64,000 nucleotides of DNA. Origin: Bacteroidales bacterium (GTDB taxonomy: Bacteria; Bacteroidota; Bacteroidia; Bacteroidales; JAIOZK01). The notes under the pieces were generated by a model. The model did not search any database. It was not told where the DNA came from and saw only the letters and a list, made by a program, of their open reading frames with translations. Both the position numbers and the translations under genes were made by a program. Shown here piece by piece: positions 20,387 through 27,889 of this stretch. The stretch lies in the NCBI GenBank assembly GCA_021738625.1, contig JAIPBS010000005.1:51478-115477 (forward strand). The letters are read 5' to 3'. Every line of letters starts with the position of its first letter. Position 1 is the stretch's first letter.

Positions 20387-20419
20387 AAAAAAAAGCGCCC
20401 GGCAAGAGGCACCGGACGC
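20387..20419 (-). terminator. Rho-independent terminator after the orphan histidine kinase gene
   Basis: The minus-strand RNA reads GCGUCCGG-UGCCUCUUG-CCGGGCGC followed by U8. The stem is 8 bp including one G-U pair. The site is 33 nt downstream of the stop at 20452. Confidence 0.6.
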
Positions 20420-20451: not shown

Positions 20452-21399
20452 TCATGCCCTGAAGTTATGAACATGTGAAAAGAGGGTGTAATCGTGAATA
20501 TTTTTGTTTAATTCTTTATATTTTGAATTAACATACATGTTTTCTCCCAGAATGCGCTTTTTATCACCAAAGATCTCATTGTAATGTTCAGTTATTTCCG
20601 TCTGTATTTCTTTACAGGGCAGTTCGATGCAAAACTCCGATCCTTTTCCAACGGTTGATTTCACCCAAATGCAACCCCCCATGCTCTCCAGAAGATTTTT
20701 TGAAATGGTCAAACCGATACCCAAGCCGTTATAATTTCTTCTGTATGAGTTTTCAATCTGGTTGAACATGCTGAATATTGCGTTCAGTTTACTCTGCGGA
20801 ATTCCTATGCCACTGTCTTTGACGTAAATTTTCACTTTGTTGTGTGTCAATGGTTCGTATCCTATTTCAATGTGGCCTTCCTCAGTGAATTTAATAGCAT
20901 TTTCAAGCAGATGTGAAACCACAATTGAAAGTTTTTCTCTATCTGTTTTTACTAAAACTTTTTTTTTATGATTTCTGGAAAACCTGATTTCAATATGCTT
21001 CTTTCCCACCTGGAATTTTTCCCGTTCATGATGTTTAACCACTTCATTCAAAATATCTTCAACAACACATTCGCATTCATTGATTTGTATCTTTTCTGTT
21101 TCTGTCTTTGCGGCCAGTATAAGGTTGTCTATCAGTTTAAGCAGGTTGAAACTGCTTTTATTAATGCCTTCAATAAAGGTTACCCGTTCTTCGTAAGTGA
21201 GATCAGCATCTTTAAGCAGGTTTGAAAACCCGAGAATGGCATTCATTGGCGTTCTGACCTCATGCGAAATATTTGATAAAAAAGAGGCTTTCAGGTTTTC
21301 AACTTCCTCACTCTTTTGCACGATCTCCTTTTGTAGCCTACCTACCTGTCTTTTAAGTCGTTCCAGTTCAGTACTCCTATGTTTAGCTCCTTCATCCAT
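20452..21399 (-). CDS. Soluble, sensor-less histidine kinase (coiled coil + HisKA + HATPase_c)
   Basis: 315 aa with no TM segment. The H-box is SHEVRTPMNAILGF, and the N and G boxes are LLENAIKFT, DSGIGIP and GLGIGLTISK. Confidence 0.85.
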   Translation of the reverse strand: MDEGAKHRSTELERLKRQVGRLQKEIVQKSEEVENLKASFLSNISHEVRTPMNAILGFSNLLKDADLTYEERVTFIEGINKSSFNLLKLIDNLILAAKTETEKIQINECECVVEDILNEVVKHHEREKFQVGKKHIEIRFSRNHKKKVLVKTDREKLSIVVSHLLENAIKFTEEGHIEIGYEPLTHNKVKIYVKDSGIGIPQSKLNAIFSMFNQIENSYRRNYNGLGIGLTISKNLLESMGGCIWVKSTVGKGSEFCIELPCKEIQTEITEHYNEIFGDKKRILGENMYVNSKYKELNKNIHDYTLFSHVHNFRA

Positions 21400-21428: not shown

Positions 21429-21459
21429 TTAATTCCGCTTTACCCGAAAAGGTAACCCT
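21429..21459 (-). promoter_or_regulatory. Bipartite motif copy A (GGTTACCTTTT-N9-CGGAATTAA): candidate alternative-sigma promoter or operator upstream of the orphan kinase
   Basis: In gene orientation it reads AGGGTTACCTTTTCGGGTAAAGCGGAATTAAG and ends 29 nt before the ATG at 21399. The blocks and spacing are the same as in copies B and C. Confidence 0.5.
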
Positions 21460-21726
21460 AAAAACGTAACTTTTTTTGTCAGATCTTTTTTTTACGACAA
21501 AAAAATCAGAAATCCTGAATGTGGAAATCATCCTTTATGTCATTTATTTGTCTCAAATAAAGGCGATTAAGTTGTAAATTTGTTTTGGATATAAGCTGCA
21601 AAGGGATTGTTTAGGCGAGAAATCAAAAATTAACTTTCGTTTTGTATGTAACAAAACCCAATATTTTACGAAAAATAGAAGACAAAATGAAAGATTTGCA
21701 GATTTTTTAAAAAAAAATGCATTTTG

Positions 21727-21757
21727 AGGGTTACCTTTTAATAGAAAACGGAATTAA
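21727..21757 (+). promoter_or_regulatory. Bipartite motif copy B (GGTTACCTTTT-N9-CGGAATTAA) upstream of the T9SS cohesin/dockerin-like gene
   Basis: It reads GAGGGTTACCTTTTAATAGAAAACGGAATTAATG and ends 30 nt before the ATG at 21788. Confidence 0.5.
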
Positions 21758-21787
21758 TGAACGCACAATAGTAAACATACAAAAATT

Positions 21788-23032
21788 ATGAAAACGAAAA
21801 TCAGACTTTATTTTGCTGTATTTGCTTGTATCTTTCTAACAAGCAGCGTATTGGCACAGACAGACCTAAGTGGCTCTGTTGATTATCACAACGATCCTGA
21901 TATCCCGATCGAAGATGTTTTGGTAAAGCTAGTTGATAACAGTGGTACTGAGATCGACAGTTGTTTGACCGACACAAATGGTGATTATATCTTTTATGAT
22001 GTGGTTGACGGGACTTATCAACTCATCTGCAACACTGAAATCGATCCGGGGGGAATCGATTTGGCCGACTCTTTCCTGATATTTTTGCATTTGTGCAATT
22101 TTTACACACTCAATCCGATAGAGTTTCTTGCTGCGGATGTGAATGGAAGCGGAACTGTTACATGGAGCGATTACTGGACCATCTTGATTGGTTGGCTTGT
22201 GAATGGGTATCCCTTCCCGGCTGGTGAATGGGTATTCCAGGAACCAACCGTAGTGATCAATTCGGCCACCAAAGATTCGTTGGTGCAAGGTGTCGGCGGT
22301 TCCAGTACGGGAGATGTTGATGGATCATTCATGCCTGGAACCAAACCCGAACCGCTGATTAATATTTACCAGGGATCACAGCAATTGGTTACAACCAGTG
22401 AGCAGGTAGAAATACCGGTTACCATTGATTGGCCTCATGCCGTTGGCGGCTTTGCGCTTACATTGAATTATCCGGGGCATCTTTTCGAGTTGACGGGCAT
22501 AAAGAGCGATATAAAGAGTTTCAATTATGAAATTTTTGATAATTATGTGAAACTATCCTGGATGGATACAAAATTCTCCAATACCACCTTTGATGATAAA
22601 CCACTGTTTTTCCTTGTTGGCCGCACAACCAATCATTTGGTCAATGGGCAGAAAGTGACTTTTACGGCGGGCATTCAAAGCCATCTGATGGATGGAAAAG
22701 GAAATATACTGGAATCCGTAACCATGAGTATGCCTTCACTTGAGGGTGAACAAGTAAGCACTTTATTCGGACAGGTATATCCCAATCCCGTAAAATCGGA
22801 ATTTACGGTTGATTATAAGCTCGAGAAGGAAGGACAGGTTAAAGTTGGTTTATATAATCAGAACGGACAGCTTGTTGCATTGCTTCTTGACGAGAACAAA
22901 AATGCAGGGGTACACAACTTTAAAGCAACTATAGATTCCTACGATTTAAATGCAGGGGTGTATATCCTGGTAATGGAAGCTCCGGGAAATAAAATCCAGA
23001 AAAATATACAACAACTGATTGTGTCAAAATAG
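21788..23032 (+). CDS. T9SS-secreted protein with CarboxypepD_reg-like, dockerin-like and cohesin-like segments
   Basis: 414 aa with a signal peptide. The dockerin-like Ca-binding loop is AADVNGSGTVTWSDY. The cohesin-like segment is VEIPVTIDWPHAVGGFALTLNYPGHLFELTGI. The C-terminal T9SS sorting domain is VYPNPVKSEFTVDYKLEKEGQVKVGLYNQNGQLV. Confidence 0.8.
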   Translation: MKTKIRLYFAVFACIFLTSSVLAQTDLSGSVDYHNDPDIPIEDVLVKLVDNSGTEIDSCLTDTNGDYIFYDVVDGTYQLICNTEIDPGGIDLADSFLIFLHLCNFYTLNPIEFLAADVNGSGTVTWSDYWTILIGWLVNGYPFPAGEWVFQEPTVVINSATKDSLVQGVGGSSTGDVDGSFMPGTKPEPLINIYQGSQQLVTTSEQVEIPVTIDWPHAVGGFALTLNYPGHLFELTGIKSDIKSFNYEIFDNYVKLSWMDTKFSNTTFDDKPLFFLVGRTTNHLVNGQKVTFTAGIQSHLMDGKGNILESVTMSMPSLEGEQVSTLFGQVYPNPVKSEFTVDYKLEKEGQVKVGLYNQNGQLVALLLDENKNAGVHNFKATIDSYDLNAGVYILVMEAPGNKIQKNIQQLIVSK

Positions 23033-23060
23033 AGTTTAATTTTCGTTTTCATCAACTAAA

Positions 23061-23098
23061 AAAAGGGATACATAATTAGGTATCCCTTTTTTTTGTTT
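23061..23098 (+). terminator. Rho-independent terminator after the T9SS protein gene
   Basis: The stem pairs gggatac (23065-23071) with gtatccc (23080-23086). Flanking A- and T-runs extend the stem, and it is followed by ttttttttgttttttt. Confidence 0.65.
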
Positions 23099-23134
23099 TT
23101 TTGGGCAGGCAATGTTTGATTATTGGAGTAGAAT

Positions 23135-26100
23135 TTGCATATTCGTAGTGTGAAAAAAATAACAAGGTTGAGGAGTAATTGCAAGAAAGCTAGGTGGTTT
23201 ATAAACTTCCTTATCACAATAGTAACCTTTTACGCACTTCTTCAGATAGATATTGCGTCTGGTCAAGCTATTAAAAGTCCGGATCAAGCATCTTTATACT
23301 TTGAGAAGGGTACCAGAGCTTATAATCTATCAAAATATGATAGTGCATCATATTATTATAGAAGTGCAGCAAATCTTTATGATGTACTTGGAAATGATGT
23401 TGAATATTTACGTTCACTCATAAATGTTGCGAATTGTCAGCGTGCAATAGGTGAGTTTTCATCCGCCCTTAATATACTGGTTACTGTTGAAGAATTCCCT
23501 GAGTTCAACTTGAATAATCATCATCTGCTGAAATCTGAGCTGTTGCATGTTAAAGGTAGTATCTTTAGCAACATTGGTAAGGCTAGTGAGGGTGTCGAAT
23601 TGCTCACTGAATCTATTGCATTGAGGGAACAATATAGTGATGCAAATGATTCATTGCTTGCATATTCATACAATAACCTTGGTAACAATTATTTTTATGA
23701 AGGTAACCGTGAAAAGGCCCTTGAGAGTTATAAGAAAGCTCTTGAAGTAGCGTTAACCTCAAAAAGAAGCATCATAGATCCTGACATTGCACTTTACTAT
23801 CAGAACATTGGAATAATTCACGCTTTAAGAGGTGATTTCAAAATTACAACTGAGTATTTTTTGAAGAACCTATCAATCAATAAGCAAATTTATGGTTCTG
23901 ATCACCCAAGTCTTGGAGTTACCTATCTGAACATGGGACGTTTAAAATACCTTTTGCATGAGCTTGATGAGGCAAAACAATACCTTGATAAGGCAGATAC
24001 AATTTTCACGAAACATTTTGGTCCAAATTATTATGGTCTTGGTACAGTTTACATGAATATGGGAAATGTTTTTAATTCTCAAAACGATTACGAAAAAGCA
24101 CTGGAATACTATAAGAAAGCACAACGAATATATAACAAGCAACTTGATAAAAGACATCCCAATATCTACAAAATCGTAAACAATATTGGATCAATTTTAC
24201 TTAAAAAGAAAGAATTCAGCGCAGCATTGGAGAATTATATGAAAAGCTATTCAGCCACCAAAGATCCAATATCAAAAACATTAATTGCCAGGAACCTTGG
24301 AAACATATTCCATGAGCTTGGCGATAGCGGACGTGCTGAGTATTATTATAAGCAATCGATAATACAAGCTGTTAGTAAATTACAGGATAATCATTACGAA
24401 ACCGGCCACAGCTATATTGCATACAGTAAGTTTTGCCTTCAAAACGGAAAATTAGATACGGGTTTGCAATATGCCGCAAAAGCCTATCGCATCTTTCTTG
24501 AAAACTTCGGCTTCAAAAATCCAAATGTTTCCGAAGCCTTAAGTACCATGGGGGAATTCTACTATCAAGAAGGAGGTTATGCAAAAGCCCTCAATCATTT
24601 TCAGCAGGCATTGATCAGCAATGCTTATGGTTTTACCGACACCAATGTATACCATAATCCTAAAGTAGACAGCATCATACTTGAATCCCAATTGCTTGAA
24701 CCACTGATTGGAAAAGCCAAATCTTTCAGAAAGCTTTCTCAAAGCAGGGGGGGCGATCTGAATGCATTAAAGGCCAGCCTCGAAAGTTGTAAATTGGCTT
24801 CCAGGATTGTGGATAGGATACGCCTGACCCTGAGGCAGGAAAGTAAACTGTATTTCTCCGGTGATGTGGATAATATTTATGCCAATGCGATCTATGTGGG
24901 ATATGATTTATATCAGCTTTCAGGAGATCCCGAATATCTCGAACAATCTTTTCTTTTTTCTGAAAAAAGCAGATTTTCGGTTTTGCTTTCAGGTTTACGC
25001 GACATTGAAGCAGTGGAATTTGGGGGGATACCGGATTCACTAAAACAACTCGAAAAAGAACTTAAAGAGAAAATCAGCTTGAATGAGAAATGGATATATG
25101 AAGAAAAGCAATCAATCGGGCAAGACCAGGATAAGATTAGCAACTGGGAATCGAATCTCTTTATGCTGCATACCCGTTACGATAGTCTGATCAATACCTT
25201 TGAAAAGGACTATGAAGATTATTACAGGTTGAAGTATGATACCGAAATTGCTGATGTTAAAACAATCAGAAAACAATTGCGATCCGATCAGGCCATACTT
25301 GAGTACTTTATAATCGATACCGTACTTTTTACTTATTTGATTGATCCTTCGGGTATCAGTTTAATAAAAACGCCTGTGGGTGAGGATTTTAACTATCACC
25401 TTGAAAACCTGAGACAATTCTACCAGGCCAGCATCTTAAATCATACCAAAGATGTATACTGGGGATATATCGAATCGGCTTCAGTTCTTTACAGCTATTT
25501 GATCAAACCCCTTCAGCAAAATTTATCGAAAAAAAGCCTGATCATCATTCCCGACGGTCAACTGGGTTACATCCCCTTTGAAAGTCTCATTTCCAATGTG
25601 CCCCAGGGCAAAAAACTCGATTACCGTAACCTTGATTATTTGCTAAATAAGCATCCTGTAAGTTATAGCTATTCGGCAACAATTCTTTTCGATAAGCTTA
25701 AGCGAAAAACCTTTAATGAGATGGTACTGGCCATGGCGCCTGTTTATCAAGGTGATAATATTCGAAACCAGCGGCTTAGCGAGGGAGATGACTTTATACT
25801 TGGCCCGATTTTTCATTCAGAATATGAGGTATCGGAAATTGACAATATGTTTGATGGGGTGGTACTAAAGGAAGAAAATGCAACAGAAGAAAATTTCAAG
25901 ATATTATCCGATGATTTCAGCATTTTACATCTTTCAATGCACACCATTATTGATGATGACAACCCCATGTATTCCAAGCTGATATTCTCCGAATATTCTG
26001 ATACTTCCTCCACTGAAGATGGATTCCTGCACACCTATGAATTATATAATTTGCAACTGAAAGCCCAGTTGGCTGTGCTGAGCGCCTGCAATACAGGTAA

Positions 26101-26476
26101 GGGGAGATTACACGAAAGTGAAGGTGTTATCAATCTGGCCAGGGGTTTTACATATGCAGGAGTGCCGAGCATTGTTATGACCCTGTGGGAAGTAGAAGAT
26201 AAAGCAGGCGCTGAGATCATGCTGAATTTTTATGACAACCTAAGAAAAGGCTTGCAAAAAGATGAGGCCCTCAGGCAGGCCAAGATGGATTACTTGAAAC
26301 AAAAGCCGCAATTCAGGGCACATCCTTATTTTTGGTCGGCTTACGTATTGATTGGAAATACAGATCCGATTGTTGAACCAAAGTGGAGAACACCTGCCTT
26401 GCTGGCAGGTTTCGGGTTTGTTTTGATTGTGGTTGTTTTTGCATTGCAAAACCAACGCAGACGTCAAAAAAAATAA
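23135..26476 (+). CDS. Envelope-anchored TPR-CHAT protein (tetratricopeptide repeats + caspase-like CHAT protease domain)
   Basis: 1113-aa ORF. The TTG start at 23135 is uncertain, and the in-frame GTG at 23150 (VKKITRL) is an equally good start. The N-terminal hydrophobic anchor or signal is WFINFLITIVTFYALLQIDIASGQ. About 500 aa of TPR-like repeats follow (YNNLGNNYFYEGNREKALESYKKAL and similar). The CHAT His is in LHLSMHT (codon 25940-25942) and the Cys is in VLSACNTG (codon 26087-26089). The C-terminal TM helix LLAGFGFVLIVVVFAL is followed by QNQRRRQKK. Confidence 0.9.
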   Translation: MHIRSVKKITRLRSNCKKARWFINFLITIVTFYALLQIDIASGQAIKSPDQASLYFEKGTRAYNLSKYDSASYYYRSAANLYDVLGNDVEYLRSLINVANCQRAIGEFSSALNILVTVEEFPEFNLNNHHLLKSELLHVKGSIFSNIGKASEGVELLTESIALREQYSDANDSLLAYSYNNLGNNYFYEGNREKALESYKKALEVALTSKRSIIDPDIALYYQNIGIIHALRGDFKITTEYFLKNLSINKQIYGSDHPSLGVTYLNMGRLKYLLHELDEAKQYLDKADTIFTKHFGPNYYGLGTVYMNMGNVFNSQNDYEKALEYYKKAQRIYNKQLDKRHPNIYKIVNNIGSILLKKKEFSAALENYMKSYSATKDPISKTLIARNLGNIFHELGDSGRAEYYYKQSIIQAVSKLQDNHYETGHSYIAYSKFCLQNGKLDTGLQYAAKAYRIFLENFGFKNPNVSEALSTMGEFYYQEGGYAKALNHFQQALISNAYGFTDTNVYHNPKVDSIILESQLLEPLIGKAKSFRKLSQSRGGDLNALKASLESCKLASRIVDRIRLTLRQESKLYFSGDVDNIYANAIYVGYDLYQLSGDPEYLEQSFLFSEKSRFSVLLSGLRDIEAVEFGGIPDSLKQLEKELKEKISLNEKWIYEEKQSIGQDQDKISNWESNLFMLHTRYDSLINTFEKDYEDYYRLKYDTEIADVKTIRKQLRSDQAILEYFIIDTVLFTYLIDPSGISLIKTPVGEDFNYHLENLRQFYQASILNHTKDVYWGYIESASVLYSYLIKPLQQNLSKKSLIIIPDGQLGYIPFESLISNVPQGKKLDYRNLDYLLNKHPVSYSYSATILFDKLKRKTFNEMVLAMAPVYQGDNIRNQRLSEGDDFILGPIFHSEYEVSEIDNMFDGVVLKEENATEENFKILSDDFSILHLSMHTIIDDDNPMYSKLIFSEYSDTSSTEDGFLHTYELYNLQLKAQLAVLSACNTGKGRLHESEGVINLARGFTYAGVPSIVMTLWEVEDKAGAEIMLNFYDNLRKGLQKDEALRQAKMDYLKQKPQFRAHPYFWSAYVLIGNTDPIVEPKWRTPALLAGFGFVLIVVVFALQNQRRRQKK

Positions 26477-26507
26477 CCATCAACCTCCGAAGAGGTATAA
26501 TGGTTAT
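26465..26507 (-). terminator. Candidate terminator for the sigma/anti-sigma operon (overlaps the CHAT stop codon)
   Basis: ataaccat (26473-26480) pairs with atggttat (26500-26507). An inner stem pairs cctc with gagg around a cgaa loop. The plus-strand A-run at 26466-26473 becomes a U-tract on the minus-strand RNA. Confidence 0.4.
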
Positions 26508-26532
26508 TATGAACTCCCAAGACAAATTTTTG

Positions 26533-27279
26533 CTATAAATTTTTCAATATTTTTTTCGCGTCGGTTTGATAAATATTGTCGCTGTTGGCTATTCTGGTCA
26601 GCAATTCTTTTGCTTTTTCATATTCATCTATTTTAAGATAGGAAAGACCCAGATACCATTCGGCTTGCTCAACAAAAAGGTTTTCCTGGTGCGAAATAAG
26701 CTCATTAAATAACTCAATGGCTTTTTTAGAATTGCCTGTTTCCATATAGCTCAAACCCATGTAAAACTTTGCCAGATTGTTCTGCGGTTCCTGGCTGAAC
26801 AGTTCGATCGCACTTTCGTAATTTTTATCCTGATAAGCCATCATCGCCTCCTTCAATGTAATATCTTCGGTATTTCCGCCTGAACGTACGATGGTTATTG
26901 CTTCTTCTGGGTTATAATAATTGGAGTAGAGAGAATTGTTGCTAACATGATCACCTTTGCTGAAAAGCAAAATGCCACCAATGATCAGTATGATGGATGC
27001 GGCAGCTGCAATACTACCAAACAAATACCGGTTTGGAGGGAACATGCGGATGATTTTATTGCGGCTGGTCCTTTGTTTGGCCTGAATAGATTTTAACTCA
27101 TTGCGAAGCTTCATAATATCTTTTTCCAGCAAGGCCGCATTTATTTCCTTATGAAGGTTGACCTCTTTTCTGAACCATGGATTGTTGCTGAGCATCTTTT
27201 CAAACTCGCTCAGTTCGTTTCCTCTCAGGTCCTGGTTAAGGTAACGATCAATTAATTCAAGTGTACTTTTTGTTGTCAT
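26533..27279 (-). CDS. Single-pass anti-sigma-like protein with an extracytoplasmic TPR domain
   Basis: 248 aa with a cytoplasmic N-terminal region of about 85 aa. The TM helix is YLFGSIAAAASIILIIGGILLF. The C-terminal TPR-like repeats include YESAIELFSQ, AKFYMGLSYMETGNSKKAIELF and AEWYLGLSYLKIDEYEKAKELL. Its start overlaps the sigma gene stop by 4 nt, which suggests translational coupling. Confidence 0.6.
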   Translation of the reverse strand: MTTKSTLELIDRYLNQDLRGNELSEFEKMLSNNPWFRKEVNLHKEINAALLEKDIMKLRNELKSIQAKQRTSRNKIIRMFPPNRYLFGSIAAAASIILIIGGILLFSKGDHVSNNSLYSNYYNPEEAITIVRSGGNTEDITLKEAMMAYQDKNYESAIELFSQEPQNNLAKFYMGLSYMETGNSKKAIELFNELISHQENLFVEQAEWYLGLSYLKIDEYEKAKELLTRIANSDNIYQTDAKKILKNL

Positions 27280-27848
27280 GTCAATTCTGTATATTTTGGG
27301 TCCTTTTTTATGCTTTCAATCAGTCTTTCCTTGCACAGGTATTTCTTTTTCTTTGCGTATTTTTCACTTCCATACCCCATCTTGCTTGCGATTTCGCGAA
27401 GTGAATACTTTTCGAGTGTCAGTTCAAGAATTCTTTTACAATCGCTCTGCAGTCTGCTGAAATGCTTCTGAAAAAGTTTATACTTTTCGGATTTTTCATA
27501 AACTATTAAAAGATCGTCCTGCTCGAAATCGCTCACGTTTTCTTGTTCGGCCAGTTCATCAGGCCTGATCCTTTTCTTTTCGAGCTGTTTAAGCCAGAGC
27601 AATTTGCAAACTGAGTACAAATAAGTATTAAAAGAACAATTTTCAATTTCAAGTTCTCCCGCCTTTAACTTTCTGTAGATAACAATCAGGGCTTCCTGAT
27701 ATATATCCTCTGCATCATTTTGAGTCCCGCTGTTTGAAATTACCAGATACTTGATTTGATCATAGTAAGTCTGGTAAATATGTTCCAACACTACCGTGTG
27801 GTGCTCTCTGATGCCATCAAGTATTTCATCAACACTTAATTCCCTCAC
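27276..27848 (-). CDS. Sigma-70 family (ECF-like, regions 2 and 4) RNA polymerase sigma factor
   Basis: 190 aa with a GVG-free GTG start and an in-frame TGA two codons upstream. Region 2-like sequence is DAEDIYQEALIVIYRKL...FNTYLYSVCKLLWLKQLEKK. Region 4 HTH-like sequence is YSLREIASKMGYGSEKYAKKKKYLCKERL. Confidence 0.85.
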   Translation of the reverse strand: MRELSVDEILDGIREHHTVVLEHIYQTYYDQIKYLVISNSGTQNDAEDIYQEALIVIYRKLKAGELEIENCSFNTYLYSVCKLLWLKQLEKKRIRPDELAEQENVSDFEQDDLLIVYEKSEKYKLFQKHFSRLQSDCKRILELTLEKYSLREIASKMGYGSEKYAKKKKYLCKERLIESIKKDPKYTELT

Positions 27849-27858
27849 TTGTCATTGA

Positions 27859-27889
27859 TTAATTCTGATTTAACAAAAAAGGTAACCTC
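27859..27889 (-). promoter_or_regulatory. Bipartite motif copy C (GGTTACCTTTT-N9-CAGAATTAA) immediately upstream of the sigma factor gene
   Basis: In gene orientation it reads AGAGGTTACCTTTTTTGTTAAATCAGAATTAATC and ends 10 nt before the GTG at 27848. Confidence 0.5.

Follow-up and report, generated by a model that had tools for sequence, protein, structure and literature searches.

What reads a short, rigidly spaced DNA motif that precedes three gene starts within one gene cluster, the start of a sigma-factor gene among them? The question is raised by a 64,000-nt stretch of contig JAIPBS010000005.1 from a Bacteroidales bacterium (hereafter, the window), in which the pattern GGTTACCTTTT-N9-CRGAATTAA stands before a histidine kinase gene, a gene for a cohesin/dockerin-like protein of a type IX secretion system (T9SS), and the gene of a sigma factor of the extracytoplasmic function (ECF) type. 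An earlier reading of the window from its letters (the original prediction) took the core GGTTAC-16 nt-GAATTA to be the cognate promoter of the adjacent sigma factor and named an operator as the alternative. The promoter assignment is supported by conservation at orthologous loci, by a sample of loci anchored on the sigma gene and by a weight-matrix scan, and we put at about 0.8 the probability that the motif is a promoter read by RNA polymerase with the ECF sigma factor encoded at 27276-27848.

The motif in the window and in related genomes

The window holds three exact copies of the motif:

Copy A, 21429-21457, minus strand: predicted ECF promoter of the histidine kinase gene; -35 at 21457-21452, -10 at 21435-21429; kinase ATG (21399) 29 nt on.
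Copy B, 21729-21757, plus strand: predicted ECF promoter of the T9SS cohesin/dockerin-like gene; -35 at 21729-21734, -10 at 21751-21757; ATG (21788) 30 nt on.
Copy C, 27859-27887, minus strand: predicted ECF promoter for autoregulation of the sigma/anti-sigma operon; -35 GGTTAC at 27887-27882, T-tract at 27881-27877, -10 GAATTAA at 27865-27859; sigma GTG (27848) 10 nt on.

The distances of 29, 30 and 10 nt are those first reported. A pattern search of the window finds these three matches and none extra even at up to three mismatches, in agreement with the by-eye claim that there is no further full copy; dinucleotide-preserving shuffles of the window give an expected count of 0.01, and 0 of 100 shuffles reached three. 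The copies are also the sole zero-mismatch matches to the core GGTTAC-N16-GAATTA, and the number of matches at one or two mismatches is at chance level (8 observed versus 5.5 expected). All three are intergenic and oriented toward a gene start, with identical 16-nt core spacing and unrelated spacer letters, and the description of a strictly spaced motif that stands three times upstream of a gene start holds. The divergent kinase and T9SS genes have a copy each, in their own orientation, 270 nt apart. When the copies are aligned with 60-nt flanks, their likeness is limited to the motif and an upstream A/T-rich stretch, and they therefore do not belong to a larger repeat.

Related loci (designated here by L numbers) keep the arrangement. 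Where the sigma factor is 96%, 65%, 57% or 53% identical to that of the window, the order sigma, anti-sigma, TPR-CHAT protein, T9SS protein and kinase is maintained and the motif is present at all three positions, the spacer and flanks having diverged. Across six aligned kinase/T9SS intergenic regions (about 170-390 nt), the two motif copies are the sole invariant blocks; such invariance amid diverged DNA is, at the level of sequence, the classical phylogenetic-footprint signature of functional sites. The position of copy C is kept in L001-L007, that of copy A before kinase orthologues in L001, L002, L004, L129 and L130, and that of copy B before T9SS-protein orthologues in nine sigma-anchored loci. 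Orthologous sigma loci thus carry the motif at the same positions down to about 50% sigma identity. The sigma, TPR anti-sigma and TPR-CHAT genes occur together in 21 of 23 large sigma-anchored loci. Contig JAIOZJ010000006.1 (GCA_021740665.1) has the same gene content and order, with a 100% identical T9SS protein, and the sister metagenome-assembled genome GCA_021740625.1 holds a 57%-identity version of the cluster.

Sixty-eight metagenome loci were chosen by sigma homology (sigma-alignment scan) with the motif ignored, and 56 of them had enough upstream DNA. In 34 of the 56, the sequence GGT(T/A)AC-N16(15)-G(A/T/G)AT(T/A)A(A/T), with at most two core mismatches, lies directly upstream of the sigma gene, 9-13 nt before its start. 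A de novo search for dyads (5-mer, gap, 4-mer) in 49 non-redundant upstream regions returned ACCTT-N13-GAAT and GTTAC-N16-GAAT in 15-17 sequences; no dyad reached more than 5 sequences in a control region that lay another 100 nt upstream. Across 33 aligned external sites, the information content is 1.3-2.4 bits per position in AGGGTTACCTTTT and G.AT.A. and 0-0.7 bits in the spacer. Of these sites, 29 have a 16-nt spacing and 4 a 15-nt spacing, and 32 end 9-13 nt before the sigma start codon.

From external sites only, with the window copies excluded, we built a weight matrix. Within the window, copies A and B score 33.9 bits each and copy C 29.0 bits, and the next best match scores 12.5 bits. 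A motif-like stretch inside the kinase open reading frame (ORF), CGGGTAACCTTTATTGAAGGCATTAATAAA at 21186-21157 on the minus strand, has a spacing 1 nt short; at 12.5 bits it is background, and it was dismissed as a fourth site. In 642 kb of sigma-anchored loci, the matrix gives 123 raw matches at or above 16 bits versus 0 in shuffles, and these collapse to 84 sites:

Before sigma genes: 41 sites
Before short double-glycine-leader peptides: 16 sites
Before T9SS-protein orthologues: 9 sites
Before kinases: 7 sites
Other downstream feature: 7 sites
Contig ends: 4 sites

The 73 sites classified by a sigma, peptide, T9SS or kinase gene all face that downstream gene (73/73), which bears out the enrichment upstream of gene starts that the original prediction had proposed to test for in related genomes.

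A broader scan covered one genome per species for 185,579 species with the pattern GGTTACCTTTT-N11-GAATWAA, for which we calculate a chance expectation of roughly 35 (our own arithmetic, equal base frequencies), and found at least 119 stretches. Among the matches listed, 8 lie outside the Bacteroidota and the wider Fibrobacteres-Chlorobi-Bacteroidetes (FCB) group and 4 in Flavobacteriales; the remaining listed matches come from Marinilabiliales-type Bacteroidales, Chitinophagaceae and Ignavibacteria. The motif is not common irrespective of gene starts: 103 of the 111 Bacteroidota/FCB matches listed are outside open frames of at least 150 aa, and 6 of the remaining 8 fall within the upstream extension of the sigma ORF itself. 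Among the listed non-Bacteroidota matches, 5 of 8 are inside ORFs, as expected of chance matches.

Candidate readers of the motif

The proposed reader and its putative inhibitor are encoded behind copy C:

ECF-type sigma gene, 27276-27848, minus strand: 190 aa, GTG start; proposed motif reader.
Putative anti-sigma gene, 26533-27279, minus strand: 248 aa; overlaps the sigma stop codon by 4 nt.

The sigma-70-family label first given to the 190-aa protein is confirmed by TIGR02937, the ECF sigma-70 superfamily model, which it matches over residues 21-160 with 52.6 bits against a cut-off of 42.9. It also matches Pfam Sigma70_r2, and its nearest solved structures are SigW and SigH (family profile; residues 6-157). 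Its homologues fall into at least 364 protein clusters, most of them from Bacteroidales, Prolixibacteraceae, Marinifilaceae and Labilibaculum; since the N-terminus is conserved in homologues from residue 2 on, the GTG start is well placed. Among cysteines C71, C81, C137 and C172, three are invariant in the family and one nearly so, which is unusual for ECF sigma factors, and a redox or metal role is possible. With regard to classification, CHAT is not mentioned in the main text of the ECF reclassification paper (PMC7826278), and a review links ECF54 to CHAT proteins (PMC8999054). We considered ECF54 as the group of the window sigma factor and set it aside as inapplicable, this group being found in Actinobacteria (PMC7826278) and having no anti-sigma factor.

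Because their genes overlap by 4 nt, the sigma factor and the 248-aa protein form one operon. According to a hydrophobicity scan and domain matches, the latter has about 80 residues in the cytoplasm, crosses the membrane once (helix at aa 85-106) and carries a TPR domain in the periplasm. This is the layout of a single-pass anti-sigma factor, and we regard the protein as a putative one with predicted sigma binding; its matches to anti-sigma models are weak (E about 3e-4 to 4e-3), and it adjoins the sigma gene in 22 of 23 large loci. Longer anti-sigma proteins, of about 500 aa, occur in some subfamilies (L136 8572-10071, plus strand; similar in L008, L133, L140, L158, L166, L169 and L177); in these, the cytoplasmic motif E-K-D/E-hydrophobic-x-x-L-R-x-x-L occurs about four times, followed by a membrane helix and TPR; the 248-aa protein of the window has this N-terminal motif once.

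In the promoter that we propose, sigma region 4 would bind the -35 block (A/G)GGTTAC and the CTTTT that follows it, and the -10 block G(A/T)AT(T/A)A(A/T), 16 nt (rarely 15) downstream, would be bound and melted by sigma region 2. Three units would be driven in this way: the sigma/anti-sigma operon, by positive autoregulation, the sensor-less kinase, and the T9SS cohesin/dockerin-like surface protein. The co-transcribed single-pass TPR anti-sigma factor presumably holds the sigma factor in check, and a periplasmic signal would free it, plausibly via cleavage by the neighbouring membrane-anchored TPR-CHAT protease. We infer this sigma factor as the reader, the position of the start site and the whole release mechanism, the last from domain content and topology.

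Several properties reported for ECF systems bear on this proposal. ECF promoters have an 'AAC' in the -35 and a 'CGT' in the -10 element and near-consensus sites, and ECF sigma factors are autoregulated in about half of cases, with regulons that are often small and local (PMC7776599; PMC9723704); a mapped ECF motif of another Bacteroidota species has CGT in its -10 box (PMC9723704). As the motif ends 9-13 nt before a well-placed sigma start, the sigma mRNA should be leaderless or nearly so, with transcription predicted to begin within 10 nt before the GTG at 27848. Leaderless mRNAs account for 5.5% in Flavobacterium psychrophilum, where the median 5' untranslated region is 24 nt (PMC9723704), so that this would be unusual but documented in Bacteroidota.

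Other promoter types were also looked for. A scan for E. coli-type sigma-70 promoters is uninformative here (24 matches versus 24.1 expected). The Bacteroidota housekeeping -7 box TAnnTTTG is found at 21575-21582 (plus strand) and 28031-28024 (minus strand), each with a TTTG about 20-25 nt upstream; these boxes, one each about 150-170 nt upstream of copies B and C, could be basal promoters, and their occurrence is within chance (60 matches in the window).

A number of observations weigh against our proposal. The window blocks GGTTAC and (C/A)(G/A)GAAT deviate from the canonical AAC and CGT, and GGTNACC is formally a 7-nt palindrome. For the sigma protein, Pfam region 4 gives no match and no curated ECF subfamily model is above its cut-off. 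The kinase site is weaker in L006 and likewise in some other relatives. Finally, about 40% of the sigma homologues in the 56-locus sample have no motif before their own gene, so autoregulation is frequent in the family and not universal. On the matter of the blocks, relatives span the canonical cores at the same positions: the -35 variant GGTAAC occurs in L131, L138, L139, L154, L155, L159 and L164, and the CGTA-containing -10 form CGTATTAA in L129 and L132.

Of the alternatives, the one that survives best retains an ECF-type promoter and assigns it to another reader, a paralogous ECF sigma factor encoded elsewhere, with the adjacent sigma gene as one of its targets. Bacteroidota genomes encode many ECF sigma factors (PMC7826278), overlapping ECF specificities are known (PMC9723704), and some genomes have motif sites on several contigs. 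Moreover, sigma genes stand 10-12 nt behind the motif in various species, and some of these related factors, in Chitinophagaceae-like genomes, are only 31-35% identical. However, the motif accompanies this sigma family at almost every locus examined, including the metagenome contigs picked by sigma homology, and subfamilies without a motif before the sigma gene still have one before the adjacent peptide gene. In L132, L133 and L174, the -10 variant GTAT is common to sigma and target sites, although these are few independent cases. We consider a paralogous reader unlikely.

The motif could instead be an operator, bound by a dimeric transcription factor or by a response regulator such as a partner of the orphan kinase. 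The original prediction described both blocks as near-palindromic. The first block contains the GGTNACC palindrome, and GAATT is partly self-complementary; the variants GAATAAA, GTATTAA and GGATTAT break any palindrome in the second block, which is not a conserved one. A kinase does belong to the gene set, and a gene for a LytTR DNA-binding protein follows the motif in some genomes; no DNA-binding regulator is conserved in the cluster, however, whereas the sigma factor is always there. One block does not repeat the other in either orientation (the two share only GG, for which reason a LytTR-style direct-repeat reading was rejected), all 73 classified sites face their gene, and divergent genes have two separate oriented copies. 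The 9-13 nt to the sigma start also leave no space for a separate downstream promoter. An operator is accordingly a very improbable explanation.

A further alternative, in which the three copies arose by chance or are left over from a small mobile or repetitive element without regulatory role, has only the general A/T richness of intergenic DNA in its favour and can be dismissed at the level of sequence, given the 0.01 copies expected, a similarity that ends at the motif borders, orthologous positions kept across genera while the surrounding DNA diverges, and sites that are nearly all outside long ORFs and face genes.

Predicted regulon and neighbouring genes

Under the ECF promoter reading, the cluster contains two predicted targets besides the sigma operon, and a protease gene:

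Histidine kinase gene, 20452-21399, minus strand: 315 aa; predicted regulon member.
T9SS protein gene, 21788-23032, plus strand: 414 aa, secreted; predicted regulon member.
TPR-CHAT protease gene, 23135-26476, plus strand: about 1100 aa; convergent with the anti-sigma gene.

Domain matches, together with AlphaFold and Foldseek, agree with the labels first given to the kinase as sensor-less and to the T9SS protein as cohesin/dockerin-like. The kinase has HisKA and HATPase_c domains and is without a membrane helix or sensor domain. The T9SS protein comprises an Ig-like domain, a dockerin-like helical Ca-loop segment (aa about 92-139, with the loop AADVNGSGTVTWSDY), a cohesin-like module and a T9SS C-terminal sorting domain (Pfam, NCBIfam); its AlphaFold model has a pLDDT of 84.9, and Foldseek matches the cohesin-like module to type-I cohesins over about 140 residues with target-normalised TM-scores of 0.7-0.78. 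Some homologues contain a Pfam Dockerin_1 domain. The presence of dockerin-like and cohesin-like parts in one protein suggests a self-associating surface scaffold. Its family is small (37 clusters) and appears tied to the sigma cluster. Terminator-like hairpins lie 3' of both genes, at 20395-20419 behind the kinase gene and, as a strong one with a 14-bp stem and T-run, at 23058-23093 behind the T9SS gene, which suggests that each is a single-gene unit.

The TPR-CHAT protein contains TPR repeats and a CHAT domain (PF12770, E=2.7e-58). Its TPR-CHAT part should be periplasmic, because it has an N-terminal signal-like segment (aa 22-43) and a C-terminal membrane anchor (aa 1084-1103) followed by RRRQKK. 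The catalytic dyad, His in HLAMHT and Cys in LSACNTG, does not vary among 18 homologues, where its contexts are HL(A/S)MH(T/A) and LS(A/G)C(N/E/K)TG; the C-terminal anchor is likewise invariant in them, the signal-like N-terminus is conserved in homologues too, and we predict an active caspase-like periplasmic protease tethered to the inner membrane. By phmmer, the CHAT part has no sequence similarity to any solved structure, the PDB sequence matches being to the TPR repeats only. The gene has no motif and is probably expressed independently, outside the regulon. In near-identical contigs, it is called from about 23168 (1102 aa) and not from the TTG at 23135.

The mini-regulon first proposed (sigma/anti-sigma operon, kinase and T9SS protein) probably amounts to three motif-bearing units in the window; in relatives the regulon is wider, with peptides, C25 peptidases and a small RNA candidate. 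Genes that recur behind the motif across species encode double-glycine-leader peptides, T9SS C25 peptidases, small helix-turn-helix (HTH) proteins, LytTR proteins and small lipoproteins. A close relative, GCA_964468645.1, has sites outside the cluster, for example before a lipoprotein/T9SS-protein pair, and the regulon of the source genome may likewise be larger than three promoters.

In relatives, the motif stands 44-58 nt upstream of genes for double-glycine-leader peptides of 30-51 aa, found at L007 14542-15400 (Labilibaculum antarcticum AP018042.1) and L008 13548-13761 and further in L133, L136, L140, L144, L146, L152, L153, L161, L166, L169 and L177; the window itself has no such gene. 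The leader is of the type ELxxIKGG, as in the leader/mature pairs MKNFEIVSQEELQNIKGG+YNEMTDTCTLDDCIV and MKTLFANNETKNFDSFSFDVLTAEELSLVKGG+KSQDAYCDLN, and the peptides are encoded next to a kinase. Labilibaculum has five tandem peptide copies about 12 kb from the gene of a C39-peptidase ABC exporter (L007 778-2985). At 10-15 aa and acidic, the mature peptides look like signalling peptides more than bacteriocins.

The small RNA candidate belongs to the sigma subfamily with the N-terminus MKNYSDEQILKGILRHDN, in which an extra motif copy is divergent from the sigma promoter. Behind it lies a unit of about 80 nt without an ORF. Its 5' hairpin (GAAGG/CCTTC) is conserved, with compensatory changes at two pairs, and is accompanied by a conserved single-stranded CAACCATTAAATC and an intrinsic terminator; we regard this unit as a candidate sigma-dependent small RNA. 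The loci, all on the minus strand, are L136 7632-7746, L135 1700-1813, L141 7483-7595, L142 1592-1707, L157 466-581, L158 7625-7738 and L163 843-953; the unit is not present in the window, and Rfam has no match in these loci or anywhere in the 64 kb.

Away from the sigma cluster, on other contigs, T9SS-secreted C25 (gingipain-family) peptidases of 982 aa are encoded about 110 nt behind the motif, at L029 626-3714 (Marinifilum sp. D714) and in L016, L030 and L101; Marinifilum and Labilibaculum carry the motif there. Also found behind the motif are a 73-aa Cys-rich protein (MENSYTNFYGLIFTCP...; 37-38 nt on; L011, L034, L046, L057) and a 60-aa protein (MAFNYYLDNVGFISR...; L018, L021), neither family matched by a Pfam or NCBIfam model, as well as small HTH_11 proteins and 110-aa LytTR-domain proteins (L014, L033, L113, L104; L056, L063, L083).

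Taken as a whole, the motif might be the output promoter of an undescribed envelope module, widespread in Marinilabiliales-type Bacteroidota, that forms an ECF-based autoinducing (quorum-sensing-like) loop, a reading that we offer as tentative and on balance doubtful. In such a loop, the ECF sigma factor would be held by the single-pass TPR anti-sigma factor and freed by the separate TPR-CHAT protein acting as site-1 protease; it would then drive a secreted product (the T9SS cohesin/dockerin protein here, double-glycine-leader peptides in relatives) that acts back on the TPR sensors in the periplasm, with the kinase and, in one subfamily, the small RNA as further outputs. The promoter type is ordinary and belongs to the textbook ECF class, whereas the sigma family is uncharacterised and fairly widespread. 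For this family, which is frequent in marine and sediment Bacteroidota and has not been studied, the analysis gives a precise definition of the promoter and a minimal regulon. The near-invariant promoter of 13+7 nt might be used as an orthogonal part for expression in Bacteroidota, peptide signalling in this phylum becomes a possibility through the link to double-glycine-leader peptides, and the TPR-CHAT partner together with the secreted-peptide targets makes the sigma family a reasonable experimental subject.

Comparison with known systems

Full-text literature searches (GGTTAC with ECF; ECF, CHAT and Bacteroidetes) found no description of the motif or of the sigma/anti-sigma/TPR-CHAT module. 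Well-known autoregulated ECF promoters are those of E. coli sigma-E, GGAACTT-N16-TCAAA, and B. subtilis sigma-W, TGAAAC-N16-CGTA. The motif resembles this class of promoter in its two short blocks at a rigid distance of about 16 nt and in the T-rich stretch behind the -35 element, and also in its place directly upstream of a sigma/anti-sigma operon, its near-consensus sites and its small local regulon. Unlike in the sigma-E and sigma-W promoters, the conserved -35 block of the window is unusually long, at 13 nt (AGGGTTACCTTTT), and unlike in typical ECF promoters the blocks are GGTTAC and GAATTAA and the sigma mRNA would be nearly leaderless.

For the peptide targets, the closest parallels are the Firmicutes ComCDE, Blp and Pln systems, pheromone circuits built on double-glycine-leader peptides in which a LytTR response regulator binds a pair of direct repeats in the promoter. 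The relatives share with them a motif before ELxxIKGG-leader peptides, beside a kinase and, in Labilibaculum, near a C39-peptidase ABC exporter; by analogy, this peptide-kinase layout suggests an autoinduction loop. They differ in that the promoter here is bipartite and of the sigma type in place of direct repeats, and in that the window is without such a peptide gene.

Within the Bacteroidota, the PorY-PorX-SigP system of Porphyromonas gingivalis places a two-component system upstream of a sigma factor whose targets are the genes of the T9SS machinery (PMC4800418). Both systems link a Bacteroidota ECF sigma factor, an orphan histidine kinase and T9SS-related genes. In the window, by contrast, the kinase is sensor-less and a predicted target of the sigma factor, the other target is a T9SS cargo protein, and the cluster contains no response regulator.

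Two systems offer parallels to the protease. One is Craspase, of type III-E CRISPR, whose TPR-CHAT protease Csx29 cleaves Csx30, a protein associated with the ECF-like sigma factor RpoE (PMC10028731). The window shares the genetic link of a TPR-CHAT protease with an ECF sigma factor and a putative sigma-binding inhibitor, and Craspase sets a precedent for the release of a sigma factor by a CHAT protease; it is cytoplasmic and RNA-activated, whereas the window protease is predicted to be periplasmic and has no CRISPR genes nearby. In Myxococcus xanthus DdvS/DdvA, an ECF sigma factor is paired with a transmembrane anti-sigma factor whose periplasmic TPR-CHAT domain is the proposed site-1 protease, and a C25-type peptidase is encoded in the DdvS operon (PMC11506125). 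The window similarly encodes together an ECF sigma factor, a single-pass anti-sigma factor and a periplasmic TPR-CHAT protein with an intact His-Cys dyad, with predicted sigma-dependent promoters on the sigma operon and neighbouring units; the motif-bearing C25 peptidase genes of Marinifilum and Labilibaculum recall the peptidase of the DdvS operon.

A reading of the cluster as a defence island, by analogy with DdvS or Craspase, was rejected. PADLOC returned no named defence-system match for the five proteins, giving only a weak match of the kinase to PDC-M43B, a candidate model, and of the CHAT protein to a generic TPR model, and there are no CBASS or CRISPR genes nearby. The lack of these genes and the different phylum also set the cluster apart from DdvS/DdvA.

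The main structural difference from DdvA is that the parts are not fused. The TPR-CHAT protein of the window is separate, with its own signal peptide and C-terminal anchor, and the anti-sigma factor has a small TPR domain of its own; in the window and in 21 related loci with both, the two are encoded by separate genes on opposite strands. As the protease is separate from the anti-sigma factor, the module is not a DdvA-type anti-sigma factor. It resembles a split version of DdvS/DdvA and may work similarly, and as a genetically split counterpart of DdvA, the triad of sigma factor, anti-sigma factor and separate TPR-CHAT protein makes the release of an ECF sigma factor by a CHAT protease addressable in trans.

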